64,000 nucleotides of DNA from a virus (taxonomy: Duplodnaviria; Caudoviricetes), in IMG/VR virus record IMGVR_UViG_3300035501_000350, positions 1 through 64,000 of that record; one strand, 5' to 3'. Shown here piece after piece: positions 11,297 through 45,861 of the stretch (positions within the stretch are counted from its first letter, which is position 1; the number at the start of each line of letters is the position of its first letter). Both the position numbers and the translations under genes were made by a program. Below the pieces are notes generated by a model. The model was not told where the DNA came from. It was given only the letters and a program-made list of their open reading frames with translations, and searched no databases.

Positions 11297-13508
11297 CCTT
11301 GTTCACCGCCTTTACCATTACTCTACCCACCATAGTCTTATTATTCTTAGCATTTCTAAGAGCAATATTATAGTGAGTTTCTAATTCTCCGTCATGACCT
11401 ACATAGTCCCTAATATTGGTCTTATACTTATATCCCTTATTAGGAACATCTCGTATCATAACTTTCTTTACCAATTGTTTCTTCTTCTTAGGAATTTTAC
11501 GGAATACTAATTTAAGCCCCATTGTCTTCAACAGAGCATTTATAATCTCAGCATTCCTATTCTTAGAATTAGTATCCAGTTTGATATCTATATCATATGG
11601 ATCTCCAATCAGAAGCTGTTCAAACAATCTTCTTGCCTGTGGAGATGATGAATACAACATAAGATTCATTACTACATACTGCATTCCAAGATGAGCTAGA
11701 TCTCCAGACTCCATAGGGCCAAACATGATAGGAGTCTTAGTGTACTTAGTCTCATAGATCTTATTAGCCTTAGATCTAGTATTAAGACCTTTGAGGTTCG
11801 TAGCGCTCAGCGAAGTAACAGAGAATTTCTCCTCTGCATACTGTTTCAGTCTATAGTTGTAGATCTTTCCAACTACCAGATTTCTTCTAGCAGGAACACG
11901 ACGAATATTACCATTAGAATCTTCTATCGGCATATAGACTGTATACGGAGTCAAGTCTATGATATCCTTAAACTCCTCATACATCTGAGCTATAGTGTCA
12001 AGTCTAATTGGTGTAGTGAATGCCGGAGTGCTAACAATGATAGCATCGTCTTCTTCTAGAATGGAATCTATAAATAGCTTACAGGCCCATTCATCTTCAA
12101 AGTTATCTACCCATTGGCGCATTGAATCTGCTTGAGATTGGTCTATCATAGAGATATACTTATGAACTATCCTAGCCTTTTCAGAATAACTCCATTGATT
12201 AGTACCAAATCTGAAAGCATCAATGATTCTCATGCCAATGAATGTTATACTCTGCTCATGAAGCTGACCAAGATTCTCTCTATTGATACAGGTAGATTGG
12301 TTCTTAATAACTTCAACTACATCTCCATTATCAAGCACAGGCATCAACTCATCAGGAAGAATCTTAGATACAACACCCTTACCACCATATCTATCGCACA
12401 TCTTATCCCCAGCTTGCATAGGCAGATCTTCTACAATAGTAATAGTCATAATTACATTGGAGAACTGCTTATCCTTGAAGAACTGCTTGCCACCAATACT
12501 ATCACGGCATATAGCATAGAGTTTCTGAAGATTATAAGACATCCTACTACTCATAGCAATAGGGCCAACTAGATCAACCACTTTACGACAAAAAGCATTA
12601 TACTGATTGTAATAATAATACAGCTGCTGGTTGTAGTAAGAGTCAGCAAGCACGTTAGGATTATTACAATACACATCAATATCTGCTACAGTGCCGTTCA
12701 TAATGATATTGCGATCACTAATCATATGCTCTCTAAGTTTAGCCTGAGATAGCGAATAGAGGATATTCTCATTTTCTAGTCTTCTAATAGAACAGAACAT
12801 CCCATTCTTAATCTTTTCTCCTACATCAGGAAATGCTTTATAGTTCTTATCGTCTCCATACATGTTTAGAAGAACATCGTTATCGTTGATTGTAATATCT
12901 GTAGTCTTAATCAGTGCAGAACAAAGTTTAGTTGCTGCACTCTCAGATATAACAATAGAATCTTCCATGTTTTGTTCACAGCTAAGATAAAGAGTTCTTA
13001 GATTAACCCCATTCATCTTATTGCCGTATTCATCAAAACCTACAGAAGTTTTAATGATATCTCCAGTAGAGATTGTATCTCCCTCATGAAGTCTATCTAG
13101 AGCATTGCTATCCCACAGATACCCATAAGACTCAGTATTATGATTGTAAGTCAATCTTTCAATTACATCATAAGTTCCATCATCCTCATTACGAACGATA
13201 AGATAATAATGATTATTCTTAAAATCAAACTTATTGATTTTATAGATAACTGTGTATTTATGCTCTGCTTCTAGATACGATGAGGACATCTTACCGAAGT
13301 CTGTTTCCCATCCAGTCTGTACTATAGGGACTTCATTCTTGGTCAGCACCATGAGCTGTTCAGTATGATTGCTAAACATGATTTCTCTTGAACCAGAGTT
13401 AGCTGGCTTGAATGGCTGCATCAAAGTACGACCAAGTACATAGTTATTGTCTGGTAATGCTTTTGTTGAATTTTGTATCTGCTTTTCAATATTAATTACA
13501 TTAGCCAT
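11220..13508 (-). CDS. rpoB: multisubunit RNA polymerase beta subunit, C-terminal half (probably non-virion RNAP)
   Basis: NMEDSIVISES, GDKMCDRYGGKGVVSKILPDELMP, RENLGQLHE, RLKQ, FGPME match the RpoB hybrid-binding region. Confidence 0.92.
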   Translation of the reverse strand: MANVINIEKQIQNSTKALPDNNYVLGRTLMQPFKPANSGSREIMFSNHTEQLMVLTKNEVPIVQTGWETDFGKMSSSYLEAEHKYTVIYKINKFDFKNNHYYLIVRNEDDGTYDVIERLTYNHNTESYGYLWDSNALDRLHEGDTISTGDIIKTSVGFDEYGNKMNGVNLRTLYLSCEQNMEDSIVISESAATKLCSALIKTTDITINDNDVLLNMYGDDKNYKAFPDVGEKIKNGMFCSIRRLENENILYSLSQAKLREHMISDRNIIMNGTVADIDVYCNNPNVLADSYYNQQLYYYYNQYNAFCRKVVDLVGPIAMSSRMSYNLQKLYAICRDSIGGKQFFKDKQFSNVIMTITIVEDLPMQAGDKMCDRYGGKGVVSKILPDELMPVLDNGDVVEVIKNQSTCINRENLGQLHEQSITFIGMRIIDAFRFGTNQWSYSEKARIVHKYISMIDQSQADSMRQWVDNFEDEWACKLFIDSILEEDDAIIVSTPAFTTPIRLDTIAQMYEEFKDIIDLTPYTVYMPIEDSNGNIRRVPARRNLVVGKIYNYRLKQYAEEKFSVTSLSATNLKGLNTRSKANKIYETKYTKTPIMFGPMESGDLAHLGMQYVVMNLMLYSSSPQARRLFEQLLIGDPYDIDIKLDTNSKNRNAEIINALLKTMGLKLVFRKIPKKKKQLVKKVMIRDVPNKGYKYKTNIRDYVGHDGELETHYNIALRNAKNNKTMVGRVMVKAVNKDGEDNLTELGRYFKELARGQSSDPS

Positions 13509-22711: not shown

Positions 22712-22726
22712 ATAATAGCTCCTTAC

Positions 22727-22813
22727 AAATAGTTAGAAAGTCTATTAAAAAATTAATTCAGATGCCGTACTAGGGCATCTGGAGAACTTTTCTAATTAAC
22801 TATATAACTATTT
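22727..22813 (+). repeat. 87-bp spacer S1 (two outward-facing 22-bp sites around a hairpin)
   Basis: aaatagttagaaagtc...cagatgcc-gtactag-ggcatctg...tatataactattt; identical to 29265-29351. Confidence 0.95.
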
Positions 22814-24910: not shown

Positions 24911-24931
24911 ATAACTAATTATCCTATTCAC

Positions 24932-25019
24932 AAATAGTTATATAGTTAATTAGAAAAGTTCTCCAGATGCCCTAGTACGGCATCTGAATTAATTTTTTAA
25001 TAGACTTTTTAACTAATTT
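24932..25019 (-). repeat. spacer S2 (reverse orientation, 88 bp)
   Basis: reverse complement of S1 with 1 substitution and 1 insertion, both in the right-hand site. Confidence 0.95.
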
Positions 25020-25806: not shown

Positions 25807-25929
25807 TCTGGCCAATATTACCTATTTGGATAACTTATGGGTGGCAAGCATGGGCGCATGATAAATATATTACAACAAGACAAAAAAATAAAGGTGGGAG
25901 TGATCCCACCTTTATTTTATGCATATGCA

Positions 25930-26454
25930 TTACTTCTTTTTGCTACCAGCGATAGATAGAAGTTCTCTTGCCAGAATGTCGATAACCTCTTGAGCATCAG
26001 TCTTATCAATAGACTGGAAACTTGCGAGGATGATGCCGACCTGGTAGTCGCTAAGATGCCGCCCGTCTTTGAGCTTGAGGTTTTCCAGACGGTTCTTAGT
26101 GGATAGTCTACCCTGCTCAATGCTGCCAGGCCGCAGCAGGTTGCTGTACATATCGCTATCAGCGATGATCATCCAGGTGTTAGATCCACCGGAATAGATG
26201 AGGACAACGCTGTTATCCTCTGCGATGTATTTGCCATATTTCTGTGCTTTGAACATGATGTTGTAAACTGCATCATTATCGAAGTATTCGATCAACCGCT
26301 TATACACCTCGATAGTGATAAGACCGCTAACAGAATGCATGGACCTGCGCTCTCCGGTAATCGGGTCGGTAACGATATCGATCAATCTTGTTTTGCCAGC
26401 GACAATATCGCCAATCAATTCATCATTTGTGAATACTACACCGTATTCGTCCAT
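25930..26454 (-). CDS. hypothetical early-type protein embedded in the cassette array
   Basis: AGGAGG RBS, TATAATATA motif at ~26500, visibly more GC-rich codons than its neighbours. Confidence 0.7.
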   Translation of the reverse strand: MDEYGVVFTNDELIGDIVAGKTRLIDIVTDPITGERRSMHSVSGLITIEVYKRLIEYFDNDAVYNIMFKAQKYGKYIAEDNSVVLIYSGGSNTWMIIADSDMYSNLLRPGSIEQGRLSTKNRLENLKLKDGRHLSDYQVGIILASFQSIDKTDAQEVIDILARELLSIAGSKKK

Positions 26455-26607
26455 TATTTTATACCTCCTAAGATTTATGGTTGATTTGTTTACACTTATA
26501 TATTATATCATCTTATTGATTAGATTTTACATATCGCGGTACAACTCCCAGATGGAATTAACCATCTGGGAATCATACTCGAAGGTTTTTTGGACGATAG
26601 AAGCGTG

Positions 26608-26685
26608 TGGTGGACCCTCAGGGGCTTGAACCCTGGACCTCGCAAATTATGAGTTTGGTGCTCTAACCAACTGAGCTAAGGGTCC
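26608..26685 (-). tRNA. tRNA with CAT anticodon, most likely tRNA-Ile2 (lysidine-modified, reads AUA)
   Basis: GGACCCT acceptor stem, TAGCTCAGTTGGTTAGAGC D-arm, CTCATAA loop, GGTTCAAG T-loop, encoded CCA; resembles Bacillus-type Ile2 more than Met tRNAs. Confidence 0.88.
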
Positions 26686-26741
26686 TAATATCATCTACTA
26701 CATTTATGTATGACAGATGATATTTTTTTAAATAATTGTGA

Positions 26742-27254: not shown

Positions 27255-27277
27255 TTATAATCACTAATCCTATTCAC

Positions 27278-27364
27278 AAATAGTTATATAGTTAATTAGG
27301 AAAGTTCTCCAGATACCGTATTACGGTATCTGAATTAATTTTTTAATAGACTTTCTAACTATTT
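27278..27364 (-). repeat. 87-bp spacer S3 (reverse orientation)
   Basis: 5 differences from S1, 4 of them in the hairpin, which still pairs (cagataccgt-att-acggtatctg). Confidence 0.95.
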
Positions 27365-29264: not shown

Positions 29265-29351
29265 AAATAGTTAGAAAGTCTATTAAAAAATTAATTCAGA
29301 TGCCGTACTAGGGCATCTGGAGAACTTTTCTAATTAACTATATAACTATTT
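29265..29351 (+). repeat. 87-bp spacer S4
   Basis: 87/87 identical to S1. Confidence 0.95.
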
Positions 29352-30051: not shown

Positions 30052-33000
30052 TTAAGAAACAACTTCCCAAGTAAACTCAACTGCTACAGTTGGAGCTTCT
30101 TTAGCATAGAACTTAATACCGCCAGCAACAGTCTCAGAGAAGTAATGGGTATCCCATGCTTCCTGCTGAGCATCACCAGTATCGGTATCAGTAGTACTAA
30201 TTACAGGGGATATATGAGCTCTAAGATCAGCAGTAAAAGTACTTATAGATACAGTGCATGTATACAACCCACTAGTACTATCGGCAGTCCAAGAATCACT
30301 TGCGGGTATAGTAGCAGTACCACTTGTTACAGCAGCTTTGCCATTTGCTAAATCATAAGCAGTCTTAACAGCAGAAGGAGTAGCCGCCAATGCAGTAGAT
30401 GTAGAAGAAGTAGAAGAACTAAGCTTTACGGCGCCATAGTATGTTGTAGTAGCCTTACCAATAAGCATCTGCCAAGCAGAACCATCGTACTCAAAATCTA
30501 CAACCTGGTTAGTAATCCATGCTCTTGCAGGAACAGCAGTGGTACCATACCAATAAGCAGTAATATCTCCAGTATTATTTACGTTAAGAGTAATTCCTGA
30601 TGTTGTACTATAATTAGTAAACTTAACAGAAATTCTAGCGTTAGTAGATAAAGTAAATCCTTCGCACTCTACAACCTTGGCTGCAGTTGCTGCTGCAGTA
30701 GAACAAGTGCCGTACCACATATGCATAGCAGAGTTGCCGGTATGATCGGTAAGATCACTTGCAGCGGCTCTAGAAGTATCAGTGGGGTGAACGTGATCAG
30801 ATCTAGCGACAGTACTAGCAGATCCTACAGCTGCGGTACCATCCATAGAAGGATTGCTAGTAGAGTAAGATACATGAGTGCCGTGGCTAGAAGCAGCAGC
30901 TCCTACATCAGATGCACTAAGGGTAATATCTGCACTTAATGCTTTACCATTAACTGTTCTAGATGTCGGTACTGCACCAATATCAGACAATACTTGAGCA
31001 GGAGTCTTCTCTGTCACAGCACTAGTACCATTACCAACAATATAAGAACCAGAGGTAATACTAGATTTACCAGTACCGCCACTGCTTACAGCAAGGGTGC
31101 CTTCCATTGAACCAAGAGAAGTGGTATTATCATTCACCCACGGTACGTTTACTGCTAGATAACCAGACTTATCTACAGATACAGGATAAGTTCTAGAAGC
31201 AGTATTAGTCTGAGCAGCAGCATCAGCAGTTAAAGCAGTCTCACTCTTAAGCTTAGCCTTAATAGTACCAGTGGTAGAGATATCTCCTCCAGTAAGGCCA
31301 ACTCCAGTAGAAACCTTAGTAACAGTACCAGTATTTGCTGTAGCGCCTTCTGCAATCTTAGAGAGCTTAGAATAATCAGAAGCACTCATAAGACCTCTAG
31401 TAGAATCAGAAGCATTAGAGTAAGTGGTATCCTTAGCAGCAATAGTGATATTACCGCTAGTATCAGTACTAATAGTAACATTATCTCCAGGAGCAATATT
31501 CACTGCAGCACTATCAGAACCATCATATTTTACTAATTGAGCATCATTTACTTTAATAGTAATGGGATTGGGGTTCTTAAGGCTGGTGTACGTAGTATTG
31601 CTAGAAGCAATTTTAAGATTACCATTTGCATCTGTAGTTACAGAAGTAGCTCCAGAACCTGTTACTTTATGTGAGCTGCGGACTGTGCCATTCTCGATAT
31701 GGTTAATATAAACACCATCATTACTAAGAGCAGTAGATGTATCAGTAGTAGCCGTATCACTACCAGCAACAACAGTAGAGCTAGTATGATGGGTATCAGT
31801 TACAGTCTCTTTACCAGTTCCAATAGCAGTTACATGGCCAAAGTCATCAAGAGTAACACTATTAACATAGGTTCTGCTAGCAGCAGTGATATTACCCTGA
31901 GAGGAAGTATCTGCATGAGAGATAGTTCTAGTACCAGAAGTGGTAATAGCAGCAGTGCTATCAATATTCAAGCCATTTCCGACCTTAAGAGTAATGCTAG
32001 TTACAGTTCCATCAGGTTCATCACCAGAAGGAATTAGAGTCCACTGGTAAGTTCCATCTCCAGACTGTCCACAGATAAACACATCACCAATCTTAGCAGA
32101 CTGACCACCATAAGTGCCAGCAGTAATAACCTTATAGGTATAGCCAAGCTGGTCTTTAGATGCAGCGGTAAGAGAACTAACAGTACCGTCAGTACCAAGA
32201 GTACCCTTAAAGACCATAGAAGTAGATACAGTTGCTGCAAGATCATCTAATTCAGCCTTAGTAGCAAAAGTAGTTCCCTTAGTAAGAGTAACAGTATGGT
32301 TAGACAGGCTAATATCTGTTACTGCATTACCACTACCTGTAGTTGTACCCTTAGAAAGAGTAGTCTCTGCAGGCAAAGTAATAGTCTTATCTGCCGCTGC
32401 AGTAACTCTACCCTTTTCATCTACAGTAAGGTTAGGAATTACAACAGTACCACCATGAGTAGCAGTCTTGGTTTCTGTCTGGCCATAAGTACCAGCTGTA
32501 ACACCAGACTTAGACAGTGTTACAGGAACACTCCAACCCTTCTTAGAGGAATCAGAAGTACCAGTAGCATCACCAGTAAGAACTACAGTGGTACTACTAC
32601 TAAACTCTGTAGCAGATACGGCATTAGCATCAGATGCCAAAGCTCCTACATCGCTAGGAGTAAGAGTGATATCAGCGCTTAATGCTTTACCATTGACTGT
32701 TCTCGCTGTTGGTACAGCACCAGCTTGAGCCGCTGTTACTTTATGGGGATTGCTAGTATTACCGATATGAGAAATCTCATCAGCAATAGCCTTCTGAATC
32801 TTACCCATAGAAGTGGATAAAGTCTCACCACTAGTCAATGTAGCAAGAGTGCTAGCGGCAGTATATGTAGGAGTTTGGTTATTTGTAGTTACATTGGGTA
32901 CATTACCTAAACCTACCTGAGATGCTGTAACCTTATGGGGATTAGAAGTATCACCAGTATGAGTATTAAGATTAGTCTGTACTGCTTGAGTATCTGCGCT

Positions 33001-34038
33001 TGCAGTAGAAGCTGCAGATTCAATAGCGTCAGAAAGAGCCTCATAATCAGTATCAATTCTAGCCTTAAGAGAATCCTTAGTGGTGCTATCAGACTTTGCT
33101 ACTCTAGCGCCCTCAACTTCAGTAGCCTCAGCAGCACCAATCTGAGTTGTAGTAACGCTATGAGGATTGTTAGTATCTCCAGTATGAGTATTAAGATTAG
33201 TCTGCACAGTCTGGGATTCATTATGAGCTGTAGTGGCATTACCACTAATAGTGTTAGCAAGTGCGTCATAGTCGGCATCAATTCTGTCTTTAAGAGAATC
33301 CTTAACCACACTATCAGACTTAGCAGTTCTTGCAGCTACCATCTCAGATGCTTCAGCAGCACCAATCTGAGTAGTTGTAACTCCATGAGGGTTAGATTTA
33401 TTAGAAGTATGAGAATCTAAGTTCTTCTGTACAGCCTCAGAACCAGCACTAGCTGCAGAGCTAGCGTTATTGATTTTGTTCTCAAGGGCAATATAATCTG
33501 CGCTGAGACGGTCAGAAAGAGTTGACTTAGTAATATCATCAGACTTTGCTACTCTAGCGCCCTCAACCTCCGATGCTTCAGCAGCACCAATTTGAGTAGT
33601 TGTAACTCCATGAGGGTTATTAGTATTATTGGTATGAGTATTAAGATTAGTCTGTACTGCTTGAGACTCATTATGAGCTGTAGTAGCATTACCACTAATG
33701 GTATTGGTAAGAGCGCTATAATCAGCATTGATTCTATCATTAAGAGAACTCTTAGTTTCTCCATCCGATTTAGCTGTTCTAGCCCCTTCTACTTCAGCAG
33801 CCTCAGCAGCGCCAATCTGGGTTGTAGTAACCTTATGAGGGTTATTAGTATCTTTAGTATGAGTTCCTATAGTACCCTCAACATTACTGATACCGCCAGA
33901 TATATCTTCATCAATTTGCTGTAATTTCTTTTCTACGGTGCTACCATCATAGGACACCATATCAGAAGATGTTTTTGGGTATATAAAATGCATAATACCA
34001 TCTATATTTTTAGATAGCGTGGCTTTCTCAATAGCCAT
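30052..34038 (-). CDS. long tail fibre protein
   Basis: 1328 aa, Thr/Ser/Ala/Gly-rich; HT...NPHxVT repeats, VGLGNV, two RTVNGKALSADITL motifs, ARSDHVHP, AATPSAVKTAYD fibre motifs. Confidence 0.88.
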   Translation of the reverse strand: MAIEKATLSKNIDGIMHFIYPKTSSDMVSYDGSTVEKKLQQIDEDISGGISNVEGTIGTHTKDTNNPHKVTTTQIGAAEAAEVEGARTAKSDGETKSSLNDRINADYSALTNTISGNATTAHNESQAVQTNLNTHTNNTNNPHGVTTTQIGAAEASEVEGARVAKSDDITKSTLSDRLSADYIALENKINNASSAASAGSEAVQKNLDSHTSNKSNPHGVTTTQIGAAEASEMVAARTAKSDSVVKDSLKDRIDADYDALANTISGNATTAHNESQTVQTNLNTHTGDTNNPHSVTTTQIGAAEATEVEGARVAKSDSTTKDSLKARIDTDYEALSDAIESAASTASADTQAVQTNLNTHTGDTSNPHKVTASQVGLGNVPNVTTNNQTPTYTAASTLATLTSGETLSTSMGKIQKAIADEISHIGNTSNPHKVTAAQAGAVPTARTVNGKALSADITLTPSDVGALASDANAVSATEFSSSTTVVLTGDATGTSDSSKKGWSVPVTLSKSGVTAGTYGQTETKTATHGGTVVIPNLTVDEKGRVTAAADKTITLPAETTLSKGTTTGSGNAVTDISLSNHTVTLTKGTTFATKAELDDLAATVSTSMVFKGTLGTDGTVSSLTAASKDQLGYTYKVITAGTYGGQSAKIGDVFICGQSGDGTYQWTLIPSGDEPDGTVTSITLKVGNGLNIDSTAAITTSGTRTISHADTSSQGNITAASRTYVNSVTLDDFGHVTAIGTGKETVTDTHHTSSTVVAGSDTATTDTSTALSNDGVYINHIENGTVRSSHKVTGSGATSVTTDANGNLKIASSNTTYTSLKNPNPITIKVNDAQLVKYDGSDSAAVNIAPGDNVTISTDTSGNITIAAKDTTYSNASDSTRGLMSASDYSKLSKIAEGATANTGTVTKVSTGVGLTGGDISTTGTIKAKLKSETALTADAAAQTNTASRTYPVSVDKSGYLAVNVPWVNDNTTSLGSMEGTLAVSSGGTGKSSITSGSYIVGNGTSAVTEKTPAQVLSDIGAVPTSRTVNGKALSADITLSASDVGAAASSHGTHVSYSTSNPSMDGTAAVGSASTVARSDHVHPTDTSRAAASDLTDHTGNSAMHMWYGTCSTAAATAAKVVECEGFTLSTNARISVKFTNYSTTSGITLNVNNTGDITAYWYGTTAVPARAWITNQVVDFEYDGSAWQMLIGKATTTYYGAVKLSSSTSSTSTALAATPSAVKTAYDLANGKAAVTSGTATIPASDSWTADSTSGLYTCTVSISTFTADLRAHISPVISTTDTDTGDAQQEAWDTHYFSETVAGGIKFYAKEAPTVAVEFTWEVVS
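32935..33860 (-). repeat. 225-bp (75-aa) tandem repeat in the tail fibre, 4 full units
   Basis: NPH codons at 33843, 33618, 33393, 33168 and 32943, exactly 225 bp apart; ABAB similarity pattern. Confidence 0.9.
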
Positions 34039-34078
34039 TTATAACACACCTCCTGTGCGGTTTAAAACCTATATATTT

Positions 34079-34876
34079 TTACTTAATAACTTCCCATGTA
34101 AATTCAACAGCGACAGTAGGTTTCTCTTCGGCATAGAACTTAATACCGCCATTTACTGTCTCTGAATAGTAATGAGTGTCCCATGCTTCCTGCTGAGCTT
34201 TGCCTGTATCTACATCTGTTGTACTAATAACAGGAGTAATATGTGCTCTTGTATTAGAATCAAAAGTATCAATAGATACAGTGCAAGTATACAACCCATT
34301 GGTAGTATTGCTACTCCAGCTGTCAGAAGACGGGACTGTTGCTTTATTTGAGGTTACTGTAGCCGCACCAATGAGAGTAGGGCTAATCTCATGCGGATTA
34401 GGGTTATTCTTTGTATCCATATGATTATTAAGAGCATCATTGGTATCGCTTACAGCTTCAATGATGGTCTTATGTTCATCATACATGATGGTTGTACCAG
34501 AATTTATATTAGTAATATCTGTATTTATGCCTTCGATTAATTCATCAATTTCTTTGATTTTTTCATTGATAGTAGTTTCGCCCTCGTAGACAATCTTATC
34601 GCCACTAGATGCAGCAACTGTATCCTGGATGACTGTAAGATCTGTAGAAACCTGAGCAAGATCAGCAAGTAATCTTTCATTAAGACTAGATCTTTCTTTG
34701 CCATCACATTTTGCTACTCTAGCTTCAGCTATTTCATCATTCGCTGAATTGATCTTATCTTCTACAGTATTGTCGGTATCAAATTCTACCATATCAGCTG
34801 TAGTTTTTGGGTAGATATACTCTACAACACCATCGACTTCTTTAGCCAATGTAGCCTTGTTAATAGCCAAAATCAT
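34079..34876 (-). CDS. short tail-fibre paralogue
   Basis: shares the N-terminal KATL.K..DG....IYPKT..DMV motif and a near-identical C-terminal domain (AQQEAWDTHY...PTVAVEFTWEV) with 30052-34038. Confidence 0.8.
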   Translation of the reverse strand: MILAINKATLAKEVDGVVEYIYPKTTADMVEFDTDNTVEDKINSANDEIAEARVAKCDGKERSSLNERLLADLAQVSTDLTVIQDTVAASSGDKIVYEGETTINEKIKEIDELIEGINTDITNINSGTTIMYDEHKTIIEAVSDTNDALNNHMDTKNNPNPHEISPTLIGAATVTSNKATVPSSDSWSSNTTNGLYTCTVSIDTFDSNTRAHITPVISTTDVDTGKAQQEAWDTHYYSETVNGGIKFYAEEKPTVAVEFTWEVIK

Positions 34877-34891
34877 TGCCCTCCTTTATAT

Positions 34892-34912
34892 AGTAATTTA
34901 CTATATTGTTCG
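34892..34912 (-). promoter_or_regulatory. late-type promoter (AACA-N6-TA) for the tail-fibre operon
   Basis: cgAACAatatagTAaattact on the minus strand just upstream of the AAAGGAGG RBS; matches a motif recurring before other late-type genes. Confidence 0.7.
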
Positions 34913-35024
34913 ATCTAAGAGGGTAGCCCTGTCCATGTAAAAAATGGTTAAATTGTCTTATTCCGTTGATTTAGTAAGGGTCTGAACATTAAAGTATAAA
35001 TACCCTTATAAGGAGTGATAGAAA

Positions 35025-35840
35025 TTGCGTTTACACATTGGTGAAGAATCCTATGCAGCAAAGAACATTTCCCAGTCTAAACCTGCCGGTACATGGGTTA
35101 AGCTTACCGTTATTGATTACGCTTCTATAGAGAATTTCCCTGAAGAGATTACTGGTGTTCTCTCTGTGCGGTCCGATAATGGATTTGAGCTTTGCACTAT
35201 TGATACTTCTAAATATGCTAGACATACCTTTGTTGGTGGCGTTCTTACATTTACTAACGAGCCTGAGCCTGTTGTTGTAGAGCCTGTGGTATATACGCCT
35301 ACTGTTGAAGAGGTTAGAGCTAATAAGATTAGCGAGATGTCTAGCGCATGTAATAGTACTATTGTTGCTGGTATTGATGTTAATGGTGAACACTTTGCTC
35401 TTACCGTAGAGGACCAGATTAATTTACTTACATTGCTTTATATGGCCGATAGTGGTCTTGAGACTATTCCTTATCATCGTGATGATGGTAGCTGTGAGTA
35501 TTACACAGCTGAGCAGTTTAAGACTATTGCTGAGGCTGCTACTAACTATAAGCTCTATCATGAGTCCTATTTCAACTCTCTTAAGGATTATATTAAGTCT
35601 CTTGAAGATATTGAAACAATTCAGTCTATCTATTATGGTATTGAGATTCCTGAGGAATACCAGTCTGTTGTTCTCAAGGATCTTATTGCAGCAATGCCTG
35701 TTACTGAAGAGCCTGAAACTGTTGATAGTTCCGAAGAAGAAACAGATATAGAAGATGCTGGTGAGGAAGAAACTGATGGTTCTGATGAAGATGCCACCGA
35801 AGAAACCGAAGAGCCTGCCGAGGATAATGCCGAAGAGTAA
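35025..35840 (+). CDS. DUF4376-like tail-fibre-associated protein with acidic tail
   Basis: KISEMSSACNSTIVAGIDV..EHFALTVEDQINL...PYHRDDG.C motif; own AACA-N6-TA motif at ~34985. Confidence 0.7.
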   Translation: MRLHIGEESYAAKNISQSKPAGTWVKLTVIDYASIENFPEEITGVLSVRSDNGFELCTIDTSKYARHTFVGGVLTFTNEPEPVVVEPVVYTPTVEEVRANKISEMSSACNSTIVAGIDVNGEHFALTVEDQINLLTLLYMADSGLETIPYHRDDGSCEYYTAEQFKTIAEAATNYKLYHESYFNSLKDYIKSLEDIETIQSIYYGIEIPEEYQSVVLKDLIAAMPVTEEPETVDSSEEETDIEDAGEEETDGSDEDATEETEEPAEDNAEE

Positions 35841-35879
35841 TTTATATAACCCACAGGGAGTAATCCCTGTGGGTATTAT

Positions 35880-36401
35880 CTATTCAATTAATACGTAATA
35901 GTAGTATGCGCTGTCAATTTGCAATACATAATACCCGTCTTCTTCCGATCCCTCTATCAATGTTCCATTTTCCGGCAATCCTCCAGATTTAAATTTAAAA
36001 TTACCATATCTTGTATTGCTTCTATAGTATATTTTACCTGAATTAGCTGTAATATAAGCTATACAGTCCATATAGTATGAAGTCATTTTATTATATGTAA
36101 CAGTTTTATTTACAATTCCGACATATGTTTTATTAGTACTATCTGTATATATCATATACACAGTGTTACTTTGTATATATGTGCTAGATGGTGCTCTAAT
36201 TGTTGAATCCGTACAGTATCCTTTGTATTTATCAAAATAATAACTTTCACAGAATGTAGCACTTTGTGCTCCTGAGCTTACGGTTTTAGCGTATTCTGTT
36301 TGTTTATACACGGTTCCAGTTGTAACAATACAACTATATTTTGCCCATACTAAACCACTAGTACTGGTAATGCTATTTCCATAAGTGTATACTGTTCCCA
36401 T
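35880..36401 (-). CDS. adhesin family B paralogue, second gene of its cassette (start MGTVYTY)
   Basis: WAKY...LPENGTLIEGSEEDGYYVLQID. Confidence 0.7.
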   Translation of the reverse strand: MGTVYTYGNSITSTSGLVWAKYSCIVTTGTVYKQTEYAKTVSSGAQSATFCESYYFDKYKGYCTDSTIRAPSSTYIQSNTVYMIYTDSTNKTYVGIVNKTVTYNKMTSYYMDCIAYITANSGKIYYRSNTRYGNFKFKSGGLPENGTLIEGSEEDGYYVLQIDSAYYYYVLIE

Positions 36402-36414
36402 ATCAAACACCAAC

Positions 36415-37035
36415 TTAAACTTGTTTTGTGTAACGATAATAAGCATTGTCTATCTGTAATACTAAATAATCTCCATCTAAAGAGCCATCAACTAAAGTTC
36501 CTTCTTCAGGGTAGCATCCTTCATCTGCGTATACATATTCAACGCCGCCATAGCTAAATGGTTCTGGATATGTAATAGTTGTAACTCCTGCCTCAGCTAC
36601 AGCTAACATAGTTGAAGTGTTAAGATATATAGAACCATAACTTACAAAATACCAGTCAAGTGTAGATTGTATTTGATATAGTAATTGGGTTTTACCATCA
36701 TCTACATAATACTTACCTAAAATATTTTGAATTGTATCACTATAAACTGGATTTGTAACGGTAAACCCATTATCAGAATCGAATGTATATGAATCCCCGG
36801 TAGTGATATAAGATTTTGCCGCTTGTATATCTTCCAACTCTGCATCATTCGCAAGATTGCCCTGGCAGCAAACAACCGACATATTTGATTTAGGTGTAGA
36901 ATCAGTTATTACATATGATGAATATTGTGTTTCCTTTGTTGCTGTGTGCTTTCTATACAATACAGTACTAGGATAATTATTACTTTTTGGCGGCGCAGCC
37001 ATACCACTAAATTGTTTTTTATACACTGTTCCCAT
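36415..37035 (-). CDS. adhesin family B paralogue currently next to the promoter segment (start MGTVYKK)
   Basis: YPEEGTLVDGSLDGDYLVLQIDNAYYRY; GGAGG RBS directly after site 37049-37070. Confidence 0.7.
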   Translation of the reverse strand: MGTVYKKQFSGMAAPPKSNNYPSTVLYRKHTATKETQYSSYVITDSTPKSNMSVVCCQGNLANDAELEDIQAAKSYITTGDSYTFDSDNGFTVTNPVYSDTIQNILGKYYVDDGKTQLLYQIQSTLDWYFVSYGSIYLNTSTMLAVAEAGVTTITYPEPFSYGGVEYVYADEGCYPEEGTLVDGSLDGDYLVLQIDNAYYRYTKQV

Positions 37036-37298
37036 AGTGGGTACCTCCAAATAGTTAGAAAGTGAACTAGTTATTTGTTTGTATTTTGTTTTTCGGCAAC
37101 CTTAAGGGCTCATCTTTCAACTTTCTCTGCCGCCTCAGAAGGCCGGATTACCCCGTGTAATCCTTAAAAATTATAGTAAAAATGATTAATGTTTTCTGTG
37201 AAATTTAGCGGGACGATATCGTCATCATATCGTCAGCTCGCTTTTTACGTGAGTTCTAGAAAAGTTTCATTGTTCAAAGGCAACTACTCCTTTCAATA

Positions 37299-37319
37299 AG
37301 TAATTTACTATATTGTTCG
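37299..37319 (-). promoter_or_regulatory. late-type promoter inside the invertible segment
   Basis: 21/21 identical to the tail-fibre promoter at 34892-34912. Confidence 0.7.
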
Positions 37320-37361
37320 GTGTATCACAGAGTACATGAAGAATTAAAGCAAAAAATATCA

Positions 37362-37390
37362 CTCTGTGGAGCAATCCACAGAGATTTTTC
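37362..37390. terminator. terminator hairpin behind the promoter
   Basis: ctctgtgga-gcaa-tccacagag with T-rich tracts following on both strands. Confidence 0.7.
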
Positions 37391-37436
37391 AAAATTCATC
37401 TAGTTCACTTTCTAACTATTTATAACGAGGTTTATA

Positions 37437-38231
37437 ATGGGAGAAATCTATGAAAGTGGCCATTTTATGGCCGGAAACCCTAATGCATCATCAAGTGGTA
37501 GTGCAAATTCTATACAATCTCTTAAATCTACTTTTTATAGAGGTGCTAATTTAGGCACTATCGCTTCCTCTACAATTGATTCATTTATTACTGAACATGG
37601 TATAGCAGCTGGAACATTTGATAATTTATTTATAGGAGATTTCTTTACTGCTACGTATAGTAATAACACTACTATTTTTAGAGTGATGGATATAGATCCA
37701 TATTATGATATATCCGATAGCGGCATTGCTGGAACTCATCATATATTAATAGTACCAGATACAGAGCTAACAACCGTAAGCAATACCAATAATAAGAGTA
37801 GTGATGGGTATACTAATTCTTATGTGCATAAAACAGCAATACCAACTATAAATACTAAGTTAAAAGCTATATTCGGATCTCATTATTTATCTTATAAAGA
37901 GAAACTATGTACAAGTTCTATGAATAGTACTTTTGCATTAGTATCTGTAAATAGTGTATCGATGGATGAGGTAGAGATATTTGGAAAAGCGGTTAATCAG
38001 AATACCGACTATGGATTATTACGGTACCAATTACCGGCATTTATGTACAACCGCGATCTAATAAAATCATATAGCTATACTACTCATAATGGAACTATGT
38101 ATTGGACAAGAGGCCGGTATTCTAGTAACTTTTGTGTTGTTTCAGCTGGTACAGCTGATAATGGATATAGTTATTATAGCACCACTTCAACTTATGATAT
38201 TGGCGTTCGTCCACGTTTCTTATTGGGTTAA
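37437..38231 (+). CDS. adhesin family A paralogue (start MGEIYESGHFMAGN)
   Basis: family A motifs, ends GVRPRFLLG. Confidence 0.75.
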   Translation: MGEIYESGHFMAGNPNASSSGSANSIQSLKSTFYRGANLGTIASSTIDSFITEHGIAAGTFDNLFIGDFFTATYSNNTTIFRVMDIDPYYDISDSGIAGTHHILIVPDTELTTVSNTNNKSSDGYTNSYVHKTAIPTINTKLKAIFGSHYLSYKEKLCTSSMNSTFALVSVNSVSMDEVEIFGKAVNQNTDYGLLRYQLPAFMYNRDLIKSYSYTTHNGTMYWTRGRYSSNFCVVSAGTADNGYSYYSTTSTYDIGVRPRFLLG

Positions 38232-38310
38232 TAAAGCAAAAAATAATGTAAATGTAAAAAATATACTGGACGGGAACCCGTCCAGTATATTCAAATGCAT
38301 TATGTGTTTA

Positions 38311-38739
38311 TTATTTCATTACTAGCACCGTAGTATCATAAACATTGCACTTACGTATTGGGGTAATTCCTAAAGACTCTGATATAGAAGTATCTTTATC
38401 ATAAGCATTAGCCCCATATTGGTACTTAAACTCTTTGTACCCTTCAACATGGCGAACAGTTAACGCATATAATTTATCAATAGTATTATTGAAATCAATA
38501 TTACTATTAATTGCTTCATGCGTTATCTTCCCATTGGCAGTAGCGATATCAATGCATGTACTATTACCAGCTTTGATGGTAAAGTGATACACGCTGTTAC
38601 CAGACTCAGAGATTCTTACATAAGCATACTCTATACCATGGTTACGTAGAAATCCGATAAGCCTCTGATGTTCGCTAGTTGGCTTATCGGATTTCTTATG
38701 CTTGTGATGATTAGTCTTCCTATCTTCCATCATCAGCAC
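38311..38739 (-). CDS. hypothetical early protein (tandem family member)
   Basis: IGFLRNHGIEYAYV resembles the N-termini of its upstream neighbours. Confidence 0.65.
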   Translation of the reverse strand: MLMMEDRKTNHHKHKKSDKPTSEHQRLIGFLRNHGIEYAYVRISESGNSVYHFTIKAGNSTCIDIATANGKITHEAINSNIDFNNTIDKLYALTVRHVEGYKEFKYQYGANAYDKDTSISESLGITPIRKCNVYDTTVLVMK

Positions 38740-39691
38740 TTCCTACCATTAATATAGTTCTAAGCCGATTAAGCTTATCCTTTCCCTTAATAAAACTGAG
38801 GTACAACCAATTAATGATATCGGTATTCACTCCAAATTCTTTAGAGAGTTTTTTAAATTCCTCATCCAATTGGCCTGGAGCATAATCTACATATTTTTCT
38901 TCAGACTCCGCTCCTGTATTGTTCTCCTCTTTAGAATTATCAAGCGTTTGTCTTGATACTTCTTCATTAAACTCAGTACTCTTATTAGAGGATTTGAAGC
39001 ATAAATCAGCCACGAATGAGGCAATATCGTTTGCCATACCGGTTTTCATCTTTTCAAGGTCGCTAATTTCAGCTTTAATCTTTGCAAGATCTCCATTAGT
39101 TTCAGTAAGCTCGTGTTCAAGATCATCTTCAGATCTGGAACTGCCGATGCTAGAAGTATCATTGGATCCATCTTGTTTGTCATACATTTGAGCTAAAGTG
39201 TGAAACAAGAAATCCCTTGCCAAGCTGGTCTTATTAGTTTTACGTTTGTCTATCTCTGCTTTGGACTTAGCAATTTTTTGCTTAATGGCATCTGCTGTGT
39301 CCTGAAGAGCTTCAACAGACGTACCGCCAGAGGAATTATCATATTCAGATTTCACAACCTCATGGGTTGATTCATCACACTTGTGGTCATCGGAGTATTT
39401 GGTGTATTTAAACCATCTTACTCTTACATATTTATCTGTCATGATCATCATATGCAGAAACTTCTCGATCGCAGAGTCTAGGGATTCATCCTTAATTACA
39501 TCAGCAAAGTAAAACTCATAATCATGAGTCTCACTAAAAGGATTCATTGCAAAATACATTACAATGTATCCGTATTTAGTAGCAACGCAGATGCTCTCCA
39601 TTGCTGGTTCGGATTCAGTTGCTGTATAATTAATGATGTAATGGTCAATCCTATTCTTCTTTAGAAAACCGAGTACATTTTTGTTTGTCAT
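38720..39691 (-). CDS. hypothetical early protein (tandem family; coiled-coil C-terminus)
   Basis: LGFLKKNRIDHY...VATKYGYI; GGAGG RBS. Confidence 0.75.
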   Translation of the reverse strand: MTNKNVLGFLKKNRIDHYIINYTATESEPAMESICVATKYGYIVMYFAMNPFSETHDYEFYFADVIKDESLDSAIEKFLHMMIMTDKYVRVRWFKYTKYSDDHKCDESTHEVVKSEYDNSSGGTSVEALQDTADAIKQKIAKSKAEIDKRKTNKTSLARDFLFHTLAQMYDKQDGSNDTSSIGSSRSEDDLEHELTETNGDLAKIKAEISDLEKMKTGMANDIASFVADLCFKSSNKSTEFNEEVSRQTLDNSKEENNTGAESEEKYVDYAPGQLDEEFKKLSKEFGVNTDIINWLYLSFIKGKDKLNRLRTILMVGSADDGR

Positions 39692-39751
39692 TTCTATTAC
39701 CTCCATCAATATATTATTAACCAGGGCTCCGAAAAGCCCTGGTTAATTTTA

Positions 39752-40441
39752 TCAAATTGTTAAGGCCGTTGATGCTGAGTAATCTTTCGTATCGGCCTTA
39801 TCTACGGATAAAATTTTTTGCGTACCATTTAATGTAGCGTGATCATCATAATTGTAGGTACGCCCATTACTATTTGGAGTTTCATTAGCCCCTCCAAATG
39901 CTTTATAAAATTGATCTTTAGATACAGAGCCAGCTTCAGCATCTTTATGCATACTGGATTCTGAATGCACATTTTTGTACTTTTCAGAACTATCTTTTAT
40001 CGCCTGTTCAGCGGCCGCCTTTAACGTATTAATCTGTTCATCACTAAGCTCCTTGATCGGCGTATTATTAATATCGACCTGTTTGGGATCATCTTCTTTA
40101 GCAGTATCAGTATCCTTGTGCTTTTTAGCGTTAGGCTTAGGAGGATCGGCGACATCATACTTGCCAACGTACAAGTACCAACTATTGTCTTTGCTAAACT
40201 TTCCATACTCTCCATCGTATAATAATGCTGCCGATATATGCTTTTTAATATAATCATCTAGAGTGCGCCCGCCATGTGCAACTGCATAATTTAAATACTT
40301 TTTGTAACCATCTGGTAGAAATCGTAACATAACAACTCCATATTTGGTTTGCACATACATATTGTCAACGCCATTTTCAGATGTTGTAAAGTAATTTAAT
40401 TCATTTTCCTTAATAATTTCAAGTACGCCATCATAATTCAT
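39752..40441 (-). CDS. hypothetical early protein (tandem family)
   Basis: VQTKYGVVMLRF motif. Confidence 0.75.
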   Translation of the reverse strand: MNYDGVLEIIKENELNYFTTSENGVDNMYVQTKYGVVMLRFLPDGYKKYLNYAVAHGGRTLDDYIKKHISAALLYDGEYGKFSKDNSWYLYVGKYDVADPPKPNAKKHKDTDTAKEDDPKQVDINNTPIKELSDEQINTLKAAAEQAIKDSSEKYKNVHSESSMHKDAEAGSVSKDQFYKAFGGANETPNSNGRTYNYDDHATLNGTQKILSVDKADTKDYSASTALTI

Positions 40442-40522
40442 TTTTATTTCCTCCATTAATATATTATTAACCAGGGCTCCGAAAAGCCCTGGTTAATTTG
40501 TCTAAGCGACTAGAATAAGTTA

Positions 40523-41221
40523 TTATTCGTCAATCTCGTGCCCAAATAAAATAGCTTCCATATTCTTTAATGGATTTTCCATTTTATTGGTAATGGGATT
40601 AAACCTAGCAAATTTATGGCAATTCTTTATATACCATTCTTGTGCATATTTTTTAGCCAATTCACGATCTTCAGCAGTGCCATATTCTGGAGTCTTATTA
40701 TCAACAGTATCTTCTGGATTAGCATCGTGATCTTCGATGGAATGTTCATCGGTGCTATCCTTAGAATGATCATTAGATCCATTGGTATCTAAGGCACTAA
40801 CGTACTCTTCTTTATAATTGTCACTATTAATAGGATGGGTTTGATTGTGACAATATCCAAGAGGATCGAACGGATTTCTAGTTCCAATTGGATTGTGCTC
40901 ATACTTTGGGGTATCGTTATACTTAACGATCTTCATATCATACAGATCATTGGATCCAAGCTTGGTTTTTACCAGGTGATATACAAAGTTATTGATAAAT
41001 GTGTCAAAGCGAACATCATCAAATGGCCTTACATTGTACAACTCAAGCGTTTCATGATCTGTACCTTCATCGGCGCTTTTAAAGTACAGCCTAATATGGC
41101 CATATTTAGTAGCTACAATCACATGCTGCTTTACCTGATCACGCTTATTGAATGTCATCACGGCATGGTCAATTTTCTCCCTTTCCAAATACGCAATCAT
41201 CTCAATGTTAGTCAGTCTCAT
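40523..41221 (-). CDS. hypothetical early protein (tandem family)
   Basis: YLEREKIDH...VATKYGHIRLYF. Confidence 0.75.
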   Translation of the reverse strand: MRLTNIEMIAYLEREKIDHAVMTFNKRDQVKQHVIVATKYGHIRLYFKSADEGTDHETLELYNVRPFDDVRFDTFINNFVYHLVKTKLGSNDLYDMKIVKYNDTPKYEHNPIGTRNPFDPLGYCHNQTHPINSDNYKEEYVSALDTNGSNDHSKDSTDEHSIEDHDANPEDTVDNKTPEYGTAEDRELAKKYAQEWYIKNCHKFARFNPITNKMENPLKNMEAILFGHEIDE

Positions 41222-42518: not shown

Positions 42519-43685
42519 ATGAAAGATACTACCGCTATATTAGATACAGCTTACCCTGAAGTAGAGAAACAGATTAAAGCAAATCTATCTGGGTATAAGA
42601 AATACATTTCTAAATTTATCAATTCAAGATCAGCACTATTATACTCCAATATGCCGTCTAAGCAGATATATTTTACTAATGATGATGCAAAAGAATTCTT
42701 TGCTTCAATTAAATTAGATCAGAAGATTATTAAGACAGCCATACAGCATACTTATTACGCCGATGTAGCAAAGTTCAATCCAAGATATGCTAAAGATGAA
42801 TGTACAGTGGCAATGTTATGCATAGTGAGATACTTTAAGCTTCATAATATGTCTAAAGAGCTTGAGCTGGCATTAATCAATATGGCATTTAGTGGTAAGT
42901 ATTACCCGTCTATATGGTATGGTTCATTTAGATTTCCTGTAAATGAATATATAATGGAATATGTTGTAGAACATGTACTGTCTAATAAGTTTGATATTGT
43001 CCGTGAGGGTAATGTAATTGGAGCTGTTAAATCTATTGCTAAAACATGGAGTACAACGTACAATCAGAAATTCAAGGATTTCCATGATGATGATTGTGTT
43101 TATCTAATTCAGCAGCTTCATAATAGACTTAGATCATTTATGTCTAATATTGCTAATGTATATTTTGATTATAATGAAAGAAAAGACGCTTATCTAACAT
43201 ATGATTCTGATGATGTTGGGGATACTAATTATAGATTAGCAGATTCTGATTCATTTATGCTTAACCGTACTGTAGAGAATACTATGACTTACATTAACTC
43301 TCATGGCATAGATACTAGAATATGTAAGATGGCAACAAATGATCTAATTAAGATGGATGAGCTTAAGAGCATCATAGAGAATATCTTAATGAATTCCGAT
43401 AATCTGCCATTGATTAAAGAGTTTGTTACGTTAATGATTGTTACATACTATAATCAATCAAAAAAGAAAGATGTTAGAGACTTAGACTTTATATCTTTCT
43501 CTATTAAAGCAAAGCCTAATAATAAAGATAAATACATCACCAGACAGAAAGAGTTGTTAAACCAAATCCTTATTAATAATTCAGAGCAGTTCTCTAGAAG
43601 ACGTAATAGAGCTGCAACTGAATCTGCTTATTATAGATCTATTAATGCATACTTTGCGTTAATAATTCAGCAAGCAAATAAATAA
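42519..43685 (+). CDS. hypothetical late (probably virion) protein
   Basis: long ORF, GACA-N6-TA motif and GGAGG RBS. Confidence 0.78.
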   Translation: MKDTTAILDTAYPEVEKQIKANLSGYKKYISKFINSRSALLYSNMPSKQIYFTNDDAKEFFASIKLDQKIIKTAIQHTYYADVAKFNPRYAKDECTVAMLCIVRYFKLHNMSKELELALINMAFSGKYYPSIWYGSFRFPVNEYIMEYVVEHVLSNKFDIVREGNVIGAVKSIAKTWSTTYNQKFKDFHDDDCVYLIQQLHNRLRSFMSNIANVYFDYNERKDAYLTYDSDDVGDTNYRLADSDSFMLNRTVENTMTYINSHGIDTRICKMATNDLIKMDELKSIIENILMNSDNLPLIKEFVTLMIVTYYNQSKKKDVRDLDFISFSIKAKPNNKDKYITRQKELLNQILINNSEQFSRRRNRAATESAYYRSINAYFALIIQQANK

Positions 43686-43877: not shown

Positions 43878-44627
43878 TTAACCTATAATAAATCTAGGAC
43901 GAATACAGTATTTAGTATCTGCATGCTGTGCAATATTGCTTACGCCATAAAATACACAGAAGAATCTTGATGAGCCGCAACAATCACGTTCATACCATTC
44001 TTCAAGTTTTCCTCTATCATTATGTAATGTTTCTATACCATGAAGCATCCTAAATCCACTTATTCTGCGGGTTAATAATCCACTGATGTGGTCATGATCC
44101 TTAAAACCAAATATCTCTAGCTGGTTCATTAATATAGATTTAACAGATACTAATTCAGTACCATCTTTATTATCTGTAGATACTATCTCATTGTAAGATA
44201 ACAGATGTTTTCCAAATATAGCTTCTAGTTTCTTATCTATAGAAGGAATAACCTCATTAAACATATAAGAACCCTTATAACCTGTAAGGTTAATCGCTTC
44301 TGGATTCATCTTATCATATTCTAGTGGATTATCGGGTACTATTAACAAATGATGAGTATCAGCAATACCGCTTTCTTCTATACCCCAATATGGATCTACA
44401 TCCATAATTCTAAACTTGATGGTTGTATTACCGTAATCAGCAGTAAAAGTATCACCAACGTATAGATCATTAAATGCTCCATTAGATACATCGTGCAGCA
44501 GCATAAAGTTATCTATGTTTTTTATGCTTACAGAGCCTAGATCATTTTCTCTATAAGCACGTCTCTTAGCAGCAATATAGTCATCAACGTCTACTAGTAC
44601 TTTATTGCTCTTTCCTTTAGTTCCCAT
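43878..44627 (-). CDS. adhesin family A paralogue, orphan outside the array
   Basis: YRENDLG, DLYVGDTF, THHLLIVPD, ends CIRPRFIIG; no 22-bp site upstream. Confidence 0.75.
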   Translation of the reverse strand: MGTKGKSNKVLVDVDDYIAAKRRAYRENDLGSVSIKNIDNFMLLHDVSNGAFNDLYVGDTFTADYGNTTIKFRIMDVDPYWGIEESGIADTHHLLIVPDNPLEYDKMNPEAINLTGYKGSYMFNEVIPSIDKKLEAIFGKHLLSYNEIVSTDNKDGTELVSVKSILMNQLEIFGFKDHDHISGLLTRRISGFRMLHGIETLHNDRGKLEEWYERDCCGSSRFFCVFYGVSNIAQHADTKYCIRPRFIIG

Positions 44628-44652: not shown

Positions 44653-45861
44653 TTATGTGGTTTTTCTACTATCACTTGTAAGTGTTACTGTGCTAGTAGA
44701 GCTAGAAGTTTTACTACTGGTGGTTGTTGTAGATGAAGCTTTAACGATAGTTCCATCTGCAGCAGAAATATATGTAGAATCTACGAATCCGTAAGTAGTA
44801 CCATTGATACAGATATAATACCATACATGATTAGAACTATCATAAACAGCGTCACAAACCTGTACTGTAGTACCATTAGTAATTGCAGGGATAGAAATAA
44901 GACGGCTATATTTAGTTCCTGCCCATGTACGTACGTTCAAAGAGTCTGCAGTAACAACACCAATAAACTTAGATGTTTTATTAAGATTAGAACCATTACC
45001 AACAGTAATTGTTGCAGTAGTATTAGTAACACTACTAGCAGGAATAAATCCATAGATCTTACTATTGATCAATACATAATACCAGTTAGCACCAGAGCTA
45101 TCAGCAATAGTATCGCATACACCAACAGAAGTTCCCTTAGTAATCTTGCTAATAGACTTTAAAGTACTATTAGTGGCTCCAGCCCAGCTTCTGGGGATTA
45201 CATCCTGATTAACACTACCAGTCCACTGAACTGTCTTAGAAATGCCTGTAGACGTAGTAGTAGTGGTCTTAGATGTCGTAGTACTAGAGCTGGTGGTAGT
45301 TGTTGTAGTGGAAGTTGATCCACTAGGATTAGTATCACCATCAAATGCGGGATAGCCATAGCCATAGATAGTAGAATTAGTTCTACGGTAAGTGCATCTA
45401 GACACTTGATCATTACTATTACCCTCAATAGTATATACGTAAGTATTATCATATTTAACAACCATGCCTGTATGGTAAAGATTGCTAGGGGCCGAACCAA
45501 AGAAAATCTGAGCTCCAAGCTTAGGAGTCTCACCAACACGACCTTTAGCTTTATAATAGCTATAACTATAGATGCACCCGGCGCCAGCACTCTTTAACGG
45601 CTGGCACGTAAGCTCAAGAGTTTTATCTAATCCAAATGCAGTTAACATACACCAATCATAGAAAAGATCGCACCATGCGTATCCATTCTTATTACCATTG
45701 TAAAATGTAGGATACTTGGAATAGATATCTCTAGCATACTTGGTGTAGTTGTTAGAGCCAGAGTTAGCAGTATTACTATCTAAGTTAGCATTACTTGCCT
45801 TCTCATGATAACCAACTTGTGATTCAGCTGTAGCAATTAAATCACTAGCATATGCTTTCAT
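44653..45861 (-). CDS. CHAP-domain cell-wall hydrolase with two SH3b-like domains
   Basis: AWCDLF (catalytic Cys), HTGMV (His), TIEGNS; Thr/Ser linker; two LNVRTWAG-type repeats. Confidence 0.88.
   Translation of the reverse strand: MKAYASDLIATAESQVGYHEKASNANLDSNTANSGSNNYTKYARDIYSKYPTFYNGNKNGYAWCDLFYDWCMLTAFGLDKTLELTCQPLKSAGAGCIYSYSYYKAKGRVGETPKLGAQIFFGSAPSNLYHTGMVVKYDNTYVYTIEGNSNDQVSRCTYRRTNSTIYGYGYPAFDGDTNPSGSTSTTTTTTSSSTTTSKTTTTTSTGISKTVQWTGSVNQDVIPRSWAGATNSTLKSISKITKGTSVGVCDTIADSSGANWYYVLINSKIYGFIPASSVTNTTATITVGNGSNLNKTSKFIGVVTADSLNVRTWAGTKYSRLISIPAITNGTTVQVCDAVYDSSNHVWYYICINGTTYGFVDSTYISAADGTIVKASSTTTTSSKTSSSTSTVTLTSDSRKTT

Follow-up and report, generated by a model that had tools for sequence, protein, structure and literature searches.

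The fimS element, which governs type 1 fimbriae in E. coli, is 314 bp long, is acted upon by the tyrosine recombinases FimB and FimE encoded by adjacent genes, and turns a single operon on or off; switches of this kind, the invertons of gut bacteria included, have been reviewed (PMC13501310). In the vpma locus of M. agalactiae and the vsp locus of M. bovis, complete genes carry a conserved site in the 5'-UTR and share one promoter, and the recombinase (Xer1/Mbr) is Xer-like (PMC2268961). The Mu G/Gin, P1 C/Cin, p15B Min, Rin (Bifidobacterium prophages, PMC6109161) and R64/Rci systems alter the receptor specificity of an adhesin through inversions that place one of several alternative 3' coding segments in frame behind a constant 5' part. 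In the literature we found no virus in which whole receptor-binding genes are switched by a movable promoter.

The locus described here lies in a 64,000-bp stretch of phage DNA (hereafter the window), which represents positions 1-64,000 of the 119,917-bp IMG/VR record IMGVR_UViG_3300035501_000350 (38% complete according to CheckV). By analogy, its closest known mechanism is the promoter-capture locus of the vpma/vsp type. As in vpma/vsp (PMC2268961), a site is located in the 5' untranslated region of several complete genes, conserved 5' regions and N-terminal peptides precede unrelated gene bodies, and terminators occur within the locus; the unique promoter to which inversions link a silent gene has its counterpart in a strong match found in one segment only (S5, 37049-37421), and the Xer-like enzyme has one in a gene that is a candidate only. 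Unlike vpma/vsp, the locus belongs to a virus, its promoter is of the phage-polymerase type and occupies a small separate segment between inverted repeats, the gene products would be receptor-binding-type virion proteins rather than lipoproteins, and the recombinase is encoded outside the locus. Furthermore, vpma/vsp are known to switch by inversion, whereas at the S5 locus we infer it. Our analysis gives about an even chance that S5 serves as the expression site in a multi-site DNA-inversion system by which the phage selects among receptor-binding-type cassettes.

The G+C content of the window is ~35%. Part of the beta subunit of a multisubunit RNA polymerase (RNA_pol_Rpb2_6, Pfam) is encoded in the record; the nearest cultured relatives of this fragment are AR9, PBS1 and Goe21 at 33% identity. 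The phage also possesses a tubulin gene. As far as its sequence indicates it is an AR9-like phage, apparently a jumbo phage with a lytic lifestyle. A DNA search of a phage collection with the region returned no match.

S5 is non-coding, measures 373 bp in total, is bounded by inverted repeats and sits between two divergent genes, each of which has its RBS and ATG immediately outside an arm. The features of the segment and its neighbours are as follows.

37049-37070, no strand: left arm of S5 (site L5), a 22-bp inverted repeat whose outer 15 nt equal an A-type site as in the 87-bp spacers described below
37400-37421, no strand: right arm of S5 (site R5), ending 15 nt ahead of the ATG of the right gene
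37299-37319, minus strand: promoter copy in S5, with AACA-N6-TA at 37317-37306 and a predicted start at ~37306, reading leftward
34892-34912, minus strand: original promoter copy, 23 nt ahead of the start of gene 34079-34876, which precedes the 1328-aa tail-fibre gene
37036-37306, minus strand: predicted leader of ~270 nt, which begins at the promoter, crosses site L5 and reaches the left gene's start
36415-37035, minus strand: left cassette gene, 206 aa, family II, starting MGTVY, now downstream of the promoter
35880-36401, minus strand: family II gene of 173 aa, placed second in the left unit, with a hairpin (35849-35874) behind it
37437-38231, plus strand: right cassette gene, 264 aa, family I, ending RPRFLLG, with no recognisable promoter in front

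A first-pass annotation had described S5 as an invertible one-way promoter within a perfect 22-bp inverted repeat, and its account of the parts was largely borne out. The arms are complementary at 22/22 positions with 329 nt between them, and their 22-mer has no third place in the window with up to 3 mismatches allowed (shuffled sequences lead one to expect 0), nor does it occur in the full 119.9-kb record outside the two S5 arms. The two plus-strand hairpins with T-runs that it proposed are both present and fold. The first (37207-37242, plus strand; -12.9 kcal/mol, z -2.0) is followed by UUUUU and is terminator-like rightward only, and the second (37362-37383; -15.4 kcal/mol, z -6.3), situated between the promoter and site R5 and followed by AUUUUU, is terminator-like on both strands and would stop plus-strand transcripts ahead of the right gene. 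No minus-strand terminator was found in the leader (37036-37306). The leader had also been called structured, which it does not appear to be, the whole of its ~270 nt folding no better than shuffled sequence (z -0.9), and the AAAGGAG with a 12-codon mini-ORF is there but was judged unimportant; this mini-ORF resembles the N-terminal part of gene 34079-34876 too slightly for a claim. An Rfam search over 36900-37600 gave sub-threshold chance matches only.

The size of S5 and its perfect 22-bp terminal inverted repeats would also suit a miniature non-autonomous transposon that landed between two genes. We consider this highly improbable, because the sequences flanking the arms differ (CCTCC on the left versus ATAAC on the right) so that there is no target-site duplication, a second copy is absent from the record, and the outer 15 nt of the arms also end four unrelated 87-bp spacers at a constant distance to the start codon. 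Taken by itself, S5 (373 bp) rather resembles fimS (314 bp), which is likewise short and non-coding with short inverted repeats and a one-way promoter, but the S5 arms belong to a family of ten sites and the recombinase is not adjacent. Since there is a gene on each side of S5, a flip would be either/or, unlike the on/off switch of fimS.

The promoter in S5 had been recognised as a copy of a tail-fibre promoter, and the match is exact over the first 21 nt and extends to 24/26 (34892-34917 versus 37299-37324). The AR9 late consensus is AACA-N6-TA/G, with transcription starting at the last base (PMC5312081), and the late-promoter motif of the present phage is, by sequence comparison, of the AR9 type. 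Its core, ACA-N6-TR, is enriched 20-34 nt ahead of start codons (29 occurrences in the record versus ~4 expected). Scored with a weight matrix that was trained on 26 sites outside the cassette region, the S5 promoter reaches 14.6 bits, equal to the tail-fibre original (start 34899), and only 20 positions in 240 kb (both strands) score at least 14 bits. A late-promoter match of at least 8 bits is found neither on the S5 plus strand nor in any spacer, exact AACA-N6-TR within S5 is confined to the minus strand, and no late-promoter core facing the right gene (37437-38231) was found by motif. The repeated 21-mer at 14.6 bits, together with the lack of anything on the plus strand, implies that S5 holds one strong late promoter directed leftward, which is a duplicate of the tail-fibre operon promoter. 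By motif match, S5 is the only place where a strong copy of the late promoter precedes a cassette. Since some AR9 late promoters are without consensus (PMC5312081), the term 'promoter-less' is unproven for the other cassettes. The S5 leader is atypical in its length of ~270 nt, as at other late genes the distance from start to ATG is 20-36 nt.

Two further matches were set aside: an AACA-N6-TA at 37079-37068, considered as a proximal promoter, scores -3.0 bits and its neighbour 7.3 bits (neither was counted), and a 13-bit plus-strand match at 21293 has no gene behind it and is overlapped by an early-type promoter of the opposite strand. A second promoter class, TG-N-TATAATATA...AGTG, is found in the whole record ahead of ~20 presumably early genes; it resembles an extended -10 box or the AR9 early motif and is absent from the cassette spacers.

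Taking S5 as a lone switch, as the first-pass annotation did, turned out to be too narrow, since its arms are two of the ten sites of a wider cassette system. The sequence ACT-W-T-M-TAACTATTT has exactly 10 copies in 119.9 kb, all of them directly 5' of the RBS and ATGGG of a complete cassette gene. The site ends 13-22 nt upstream of the start codon, and the cassettes carry their own RBS and ATG. Two of these copies are the outer 15 nt of the S5 arms and the other eight bound four 87-bp spacers between divergent genes, as listed here.

22727-22813, no strand: spacer S1, A end left and B end right, with a central hairpin and no strong promoter
24932-25019, no strand: spacer S2, an inverted copy of S1 with the B end left and a variant A end right
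27278-27364, no strand: spacer S3, also an inverted copy, in which the hairpin stem has a compensatory change
29265-29351, no strand: spacer S4, equal to S1 at 87/87, with other genes on both sides

The central hairpin of every spacer is terminator-like in both directions, and the best promoter match within the spacers is 7.2 bits. Four leader types (a to d) occur downstream of the sites, of which a, c and d are each seen beside both A and B ends in the window and its relatives. Comparison of S1-left with S4-left shows agreement at 45/45 positions of the interior, 15/15 of the site and 13/30 beyond it, while S4-left and S5-left agree at 18/45, 15/15 and 29/30, respectively; homology thus breaks off exactly where the site ends on its outer side. 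Those bases in which A and B differ invariably go with the spacer interior, and therefore any crossover would have to lie within the shared 9-mer TAACTATTT. In some cassettes 95% identity extends ~90 nt into the gene, which, together with the occurrence of identical spacers within a genome, shows that homologous exchange acts too. Several sites are also present in Min, Rin and R64, but the sites of the S5 locus are upstream of the RBS, and it is whole genes or two-gene units that would be exchanged under a movable promoter. The locus is not a shufflon of the R64/Min/Rin type, because its sites lie upstream of complete genes.

Where a GT-starting leader abuts the site, the reverse complement of the junction reads ACA-AATAGT-TA, a minimal late core directed into the spacer and toward the opposite cassette. 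Such junction cores (at 22725-22735, 24930-24940 and 27276-27286 on the plus strand and 29353-29343 on the minus strand; two leader types) score 0.6-5.6 bits and face the spacer hairpin. A single tRNA-Met (CAT) is encoded between cassette units at 26608-26685 (minus strand), and its counterpart on contig L219 is ~91% identical. Searches with the exact 22-mer, the B-end 22-mer and a spacer 24-mer found nothing in IMG/VR and JGI metagenome contigs (a set without near-identical records), and a looser site pattern gave 119 single matches, all of them attributable to chance.

The left and right cassette proteins are mutually unrelated and belong to two families that together comprise 14 paralogues, all intact. 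Family I (7 members including the right gene, ~250 aa) has a C-terminal RPRFLLG and the DUF6273 domain, and with a dN/dS of 0.3-0.5 is, on this estimate, under purifying selection. Family II (7 members including the left gene, 170-207 aa) has a tyrosine-rich end and gave no match to known families. DUF6273 is the C-type-lectin-like domain of Mtd-like receptor binders that are diversified by retroelements (PMC10743442; bioRxiv preprint), and Lactobacillus phage JCL1032 has a family I homologue with the annotation tail fibre. Judging from DUF6273 and these homologues, the cassettes look like genes of the receptor-binding type. They are found on both sides of the tail-fibre genes (30052-35840).

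No homologue of the left gene was found outside this phage, and protein patterns built from both genes flanking S5 and from the neighbour 38720-39691 had no relatives in IMG/VR. An alignment search with family I retrieved 80 distant loci at ~30% identity, at none of which the site motif was present. AlphaFold yielded only poor models (mean pLDDT 57.5 and 36.5), and a Foldseek search returned no match. Contigs from RNA libraries cover 36470-37020 of the left gene, which is no proof of transcription, and the fact that 37021-38281 is uncovered in the RNA-library contigs of runs X1 and X2 proves nothing.

Several other features were observed around the cassettes. A seventh family I (DUF6273-type) paralogue, without a site, is located at 43878-44627 (minus strand) as the second gene behind 44653-45861, which has a weak SH3_3 match and its own late promoter; this paralogue may be a constitutively made receptor binder. 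Searches gave no identity for the 388-aa protein encoded at 42519-43685. A family I homologue of 306 aa is also encoded by a distant jumbo-phage relative (contig L218, 248.9 kb, JGI 3300010163, positions 10001-13280), where a reverse transcriptase (RVT_1) lies two genes downstream of it; this relative probably diversifies the same kind of protein by retroelement instead of cassettes. At 38720-41221 there are three consecutive minus-strand genes (225-323 aa), each behind a terminator-like hairpin, the same AT-rich box and an RBS. The first and third of their proteins are weakly related, the upstream repeats 39688-39749 and 40438-40499 are 95% identical over 62 nt with a third, more diverged copy, and in contigs from RNA libraries variant joins (loose ends) are seen at 39688 and 38617. 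Within the 1328-aa tail-fibre gene there is a 225-nt tandem repeat (33088-33851; 3.4 copies, 67% matches), parts of which recur as further diverged copies in gene 34079-34876.

All 14 cassette proteins, including four whose genes have no site, start with MG-x-[VI]-[YFH], and leader peptides are common to both protein families. The shared start and leader peptides fit a docking peptide, and the sharing of leader peptides across families points to recombination inside coding DNA as well. Both observations would fit a static region. In it, the ten sites would be a shared cis element acting as operator, translational control or unrecognised promoter, and two divergent genes with one upstream element would account for the inverted repeat. 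The cassettes would all be made together and docked via their common N-terminal peptide, as is the case in phages that have many receptor-binding proteins, and the mosaic junctions would result from homologous recombination between co-infecting relatives. The concerted evolution of the spacers within a genome and the existence of non-consensus late promoters in AR9 (PMC5312081) agree with such a region, which we nevertheless consider unlikely. The element is found nowhere else in 119.9 kb, and an identity of 15 bp is short for repeated homologous exchange, yet homology on either side stops at its edge. A shared element would not need the further 7 bp by which the S5 arms reach 22/22, and the hairpin terminators between divergent genes would have no role. 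In addition, nine intact genes would be left without a recognisable promoter, whereas ordinary divergent late genes have one each, as in the intergenic region 34877-35024 with one promoter each way.

The reading of S5 as an expression site draws further on rearrangements between related phages. In a related phage known from two contigs (JGI 3300035502), the spacers are 93-94% identical to those of the window and the cassettes ~70% identical in DNA. On contig L136 the spacer is placed between a-type and c-type leaders in the orientation opposite to S4, and on contig L219 it is flipped relative to its right flank, which corresponds to window 25882-26737 at 91%. The two spacers of the relative are mutually identical and share a loop variant that is absent from the window, which indicates concerted evolution. 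A further contig, from run X4, has only 1 mismatch in 90 over the stretch made up of S5 interior (37064-37110), site, a-type leader and MGTVY, and after MGTVY continues into a different, family-I-like cassette; this join shows that the cassette at the expression site differs between close relatives. Breakpoints located in the sites are therefore seen between paralogous copies and between related phages, and none was seen within one population among the assemblies.

All fetched assemblies of the phage itself (from five JGI samples and three Logan runs) are collinear with the window, and the six that span S5 (window, L004, L005, L006, L007 and L220) come from at least five samples and have it in one orientation, these being consensus contigs in which a minority form is possible. 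Logan contig L007 is unbroken through the right arm, and so the flipped form should be rare or absent in that run. Of the invertible promoter proposed at first, then, the anatomy (arms, one-way motif and hairpins before the right gene) was found as described and the second orientation was not, all six assemblies agreeing in orientation. This single arrangement in all assemblies also agrees with the static region discussed above. Contig ends at 37034 and 37050, considered as signs of inversion, fit a 43-nt repeat common to S5-left and S4-left, those inside S2 fit the existence of four spacer copies, and one at 37409 is no evidence for inversion. A 38-nt stretch in a contig of X5 looks like the right arm, but it differs at 5 positions, is set in foreign sequence and probably has no relation to it.

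The finding of rearrangements between relatives and never within a population would also fit a frozen relic, in which ancestral site-specific inversions were followed by loss or retargeting of the enzyme and fixation of the arrangement. The left unit would then be expressed, and the others would decay or be expressed otherwise. This explanation, which has the absence of a recombinase in or beside the locus in its favour, appears to us improbable, because the 22/22 arms, the identity of S1 and S4 at 87/87, the intact reading frames and the purifying selection on family I speak for continued use. Moreover, S5 is ~99% identical in a relative with a different neighbouring cassette, so that the exchange must be recent.

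A continuing system would need an enzyme, and no recombinase is encoded in or beside the cassette locus. The record (38% complete) contains no serine recombinase in its 119.9 kb and a sole Xer-like tyrosine recombinase (74487-75503), which scores 202.6 bits against the XerA model, below the cut-off of 220 bits. This gene is 37 kb from S5, adjoins an unrelated repeat array and has candidate sites of its own nearby. Because all six S5-spanning assemblies have one orientation and the only recombinase is 37 kb away, we infer inversion at S5 rather than demonstrate it. At ~72000-72800 of the record (G000:C1; 8-9 kb past the end of the window) and 75504-75690 there are five tandem units, each with a TACAA-N7-ACA-N6-TG motif, a structured stretch that varies and a 26-nt hairpin (TTAATT loop) that does not. 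This same promoter variant (9.5 bits) precedes the recombinase gene, and on the strength of this shared motif the recombinase and the small-RNA-like units may be co-regulated.

Taken together, a possible pathway can be proposed. The late promoter in S5 would be read in one direction by the AR9-like RNA polymerase of the phage itself and, in the orientation assembled, would drive the left unit (36415-37035 and 35880-36401), while the right gene (37437-38231) would be shielded by two terminators and the remaining cassettes would presumably be silent. A tyrosine recombinase, for which the Xer-like protein of 74487-75503 is the candidate, would then cross over inside TAACTATTT. Recombination of arm with arm would turn the promoter toward 37437-38231, and recombination of an arm with an oppositely oriented site of S1 to S4 would place the promoter next to another cassette. 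Such an inverted block would include the tail-fibre genes, which carry promoters of their own. The hairpins of the promoter-less spacers would serve as insulators. If inversion is ongoing, this would amount to a working promoter shufflon in a lytic AR9-like jumbo phage, with a tyrosine recombinase moving S5 among ten cassettes of two families, a reading that we hold tentatively and to which we give slightly less than even credence.

Known phage switches (Mu, P1, p15B, Rin) swap the tip of one fibre gene, and the logic of a movable promoter is so far known only from bacterial surface antigens such as those controlled by vpma/vsp and fimS. If the proposed system is real, a movable promoter that chooses whole receptor-binding genes would represent a different viral host-range hedge, in which a promoter of the phage-polymerase type is used as a mobile part. 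Experiments on host range could be aimed at the ten cassettes and at the predicted 9-bp crossover region. In metagenomic data, a single jumbo-phage genome would then correspond to several phenotypes, and assemblies broken at the sites might hide variants. For the phage, a single genome would give rise to progeny with up to ten sets of host-recognition proteins, produced at the same time as the tail fibre.
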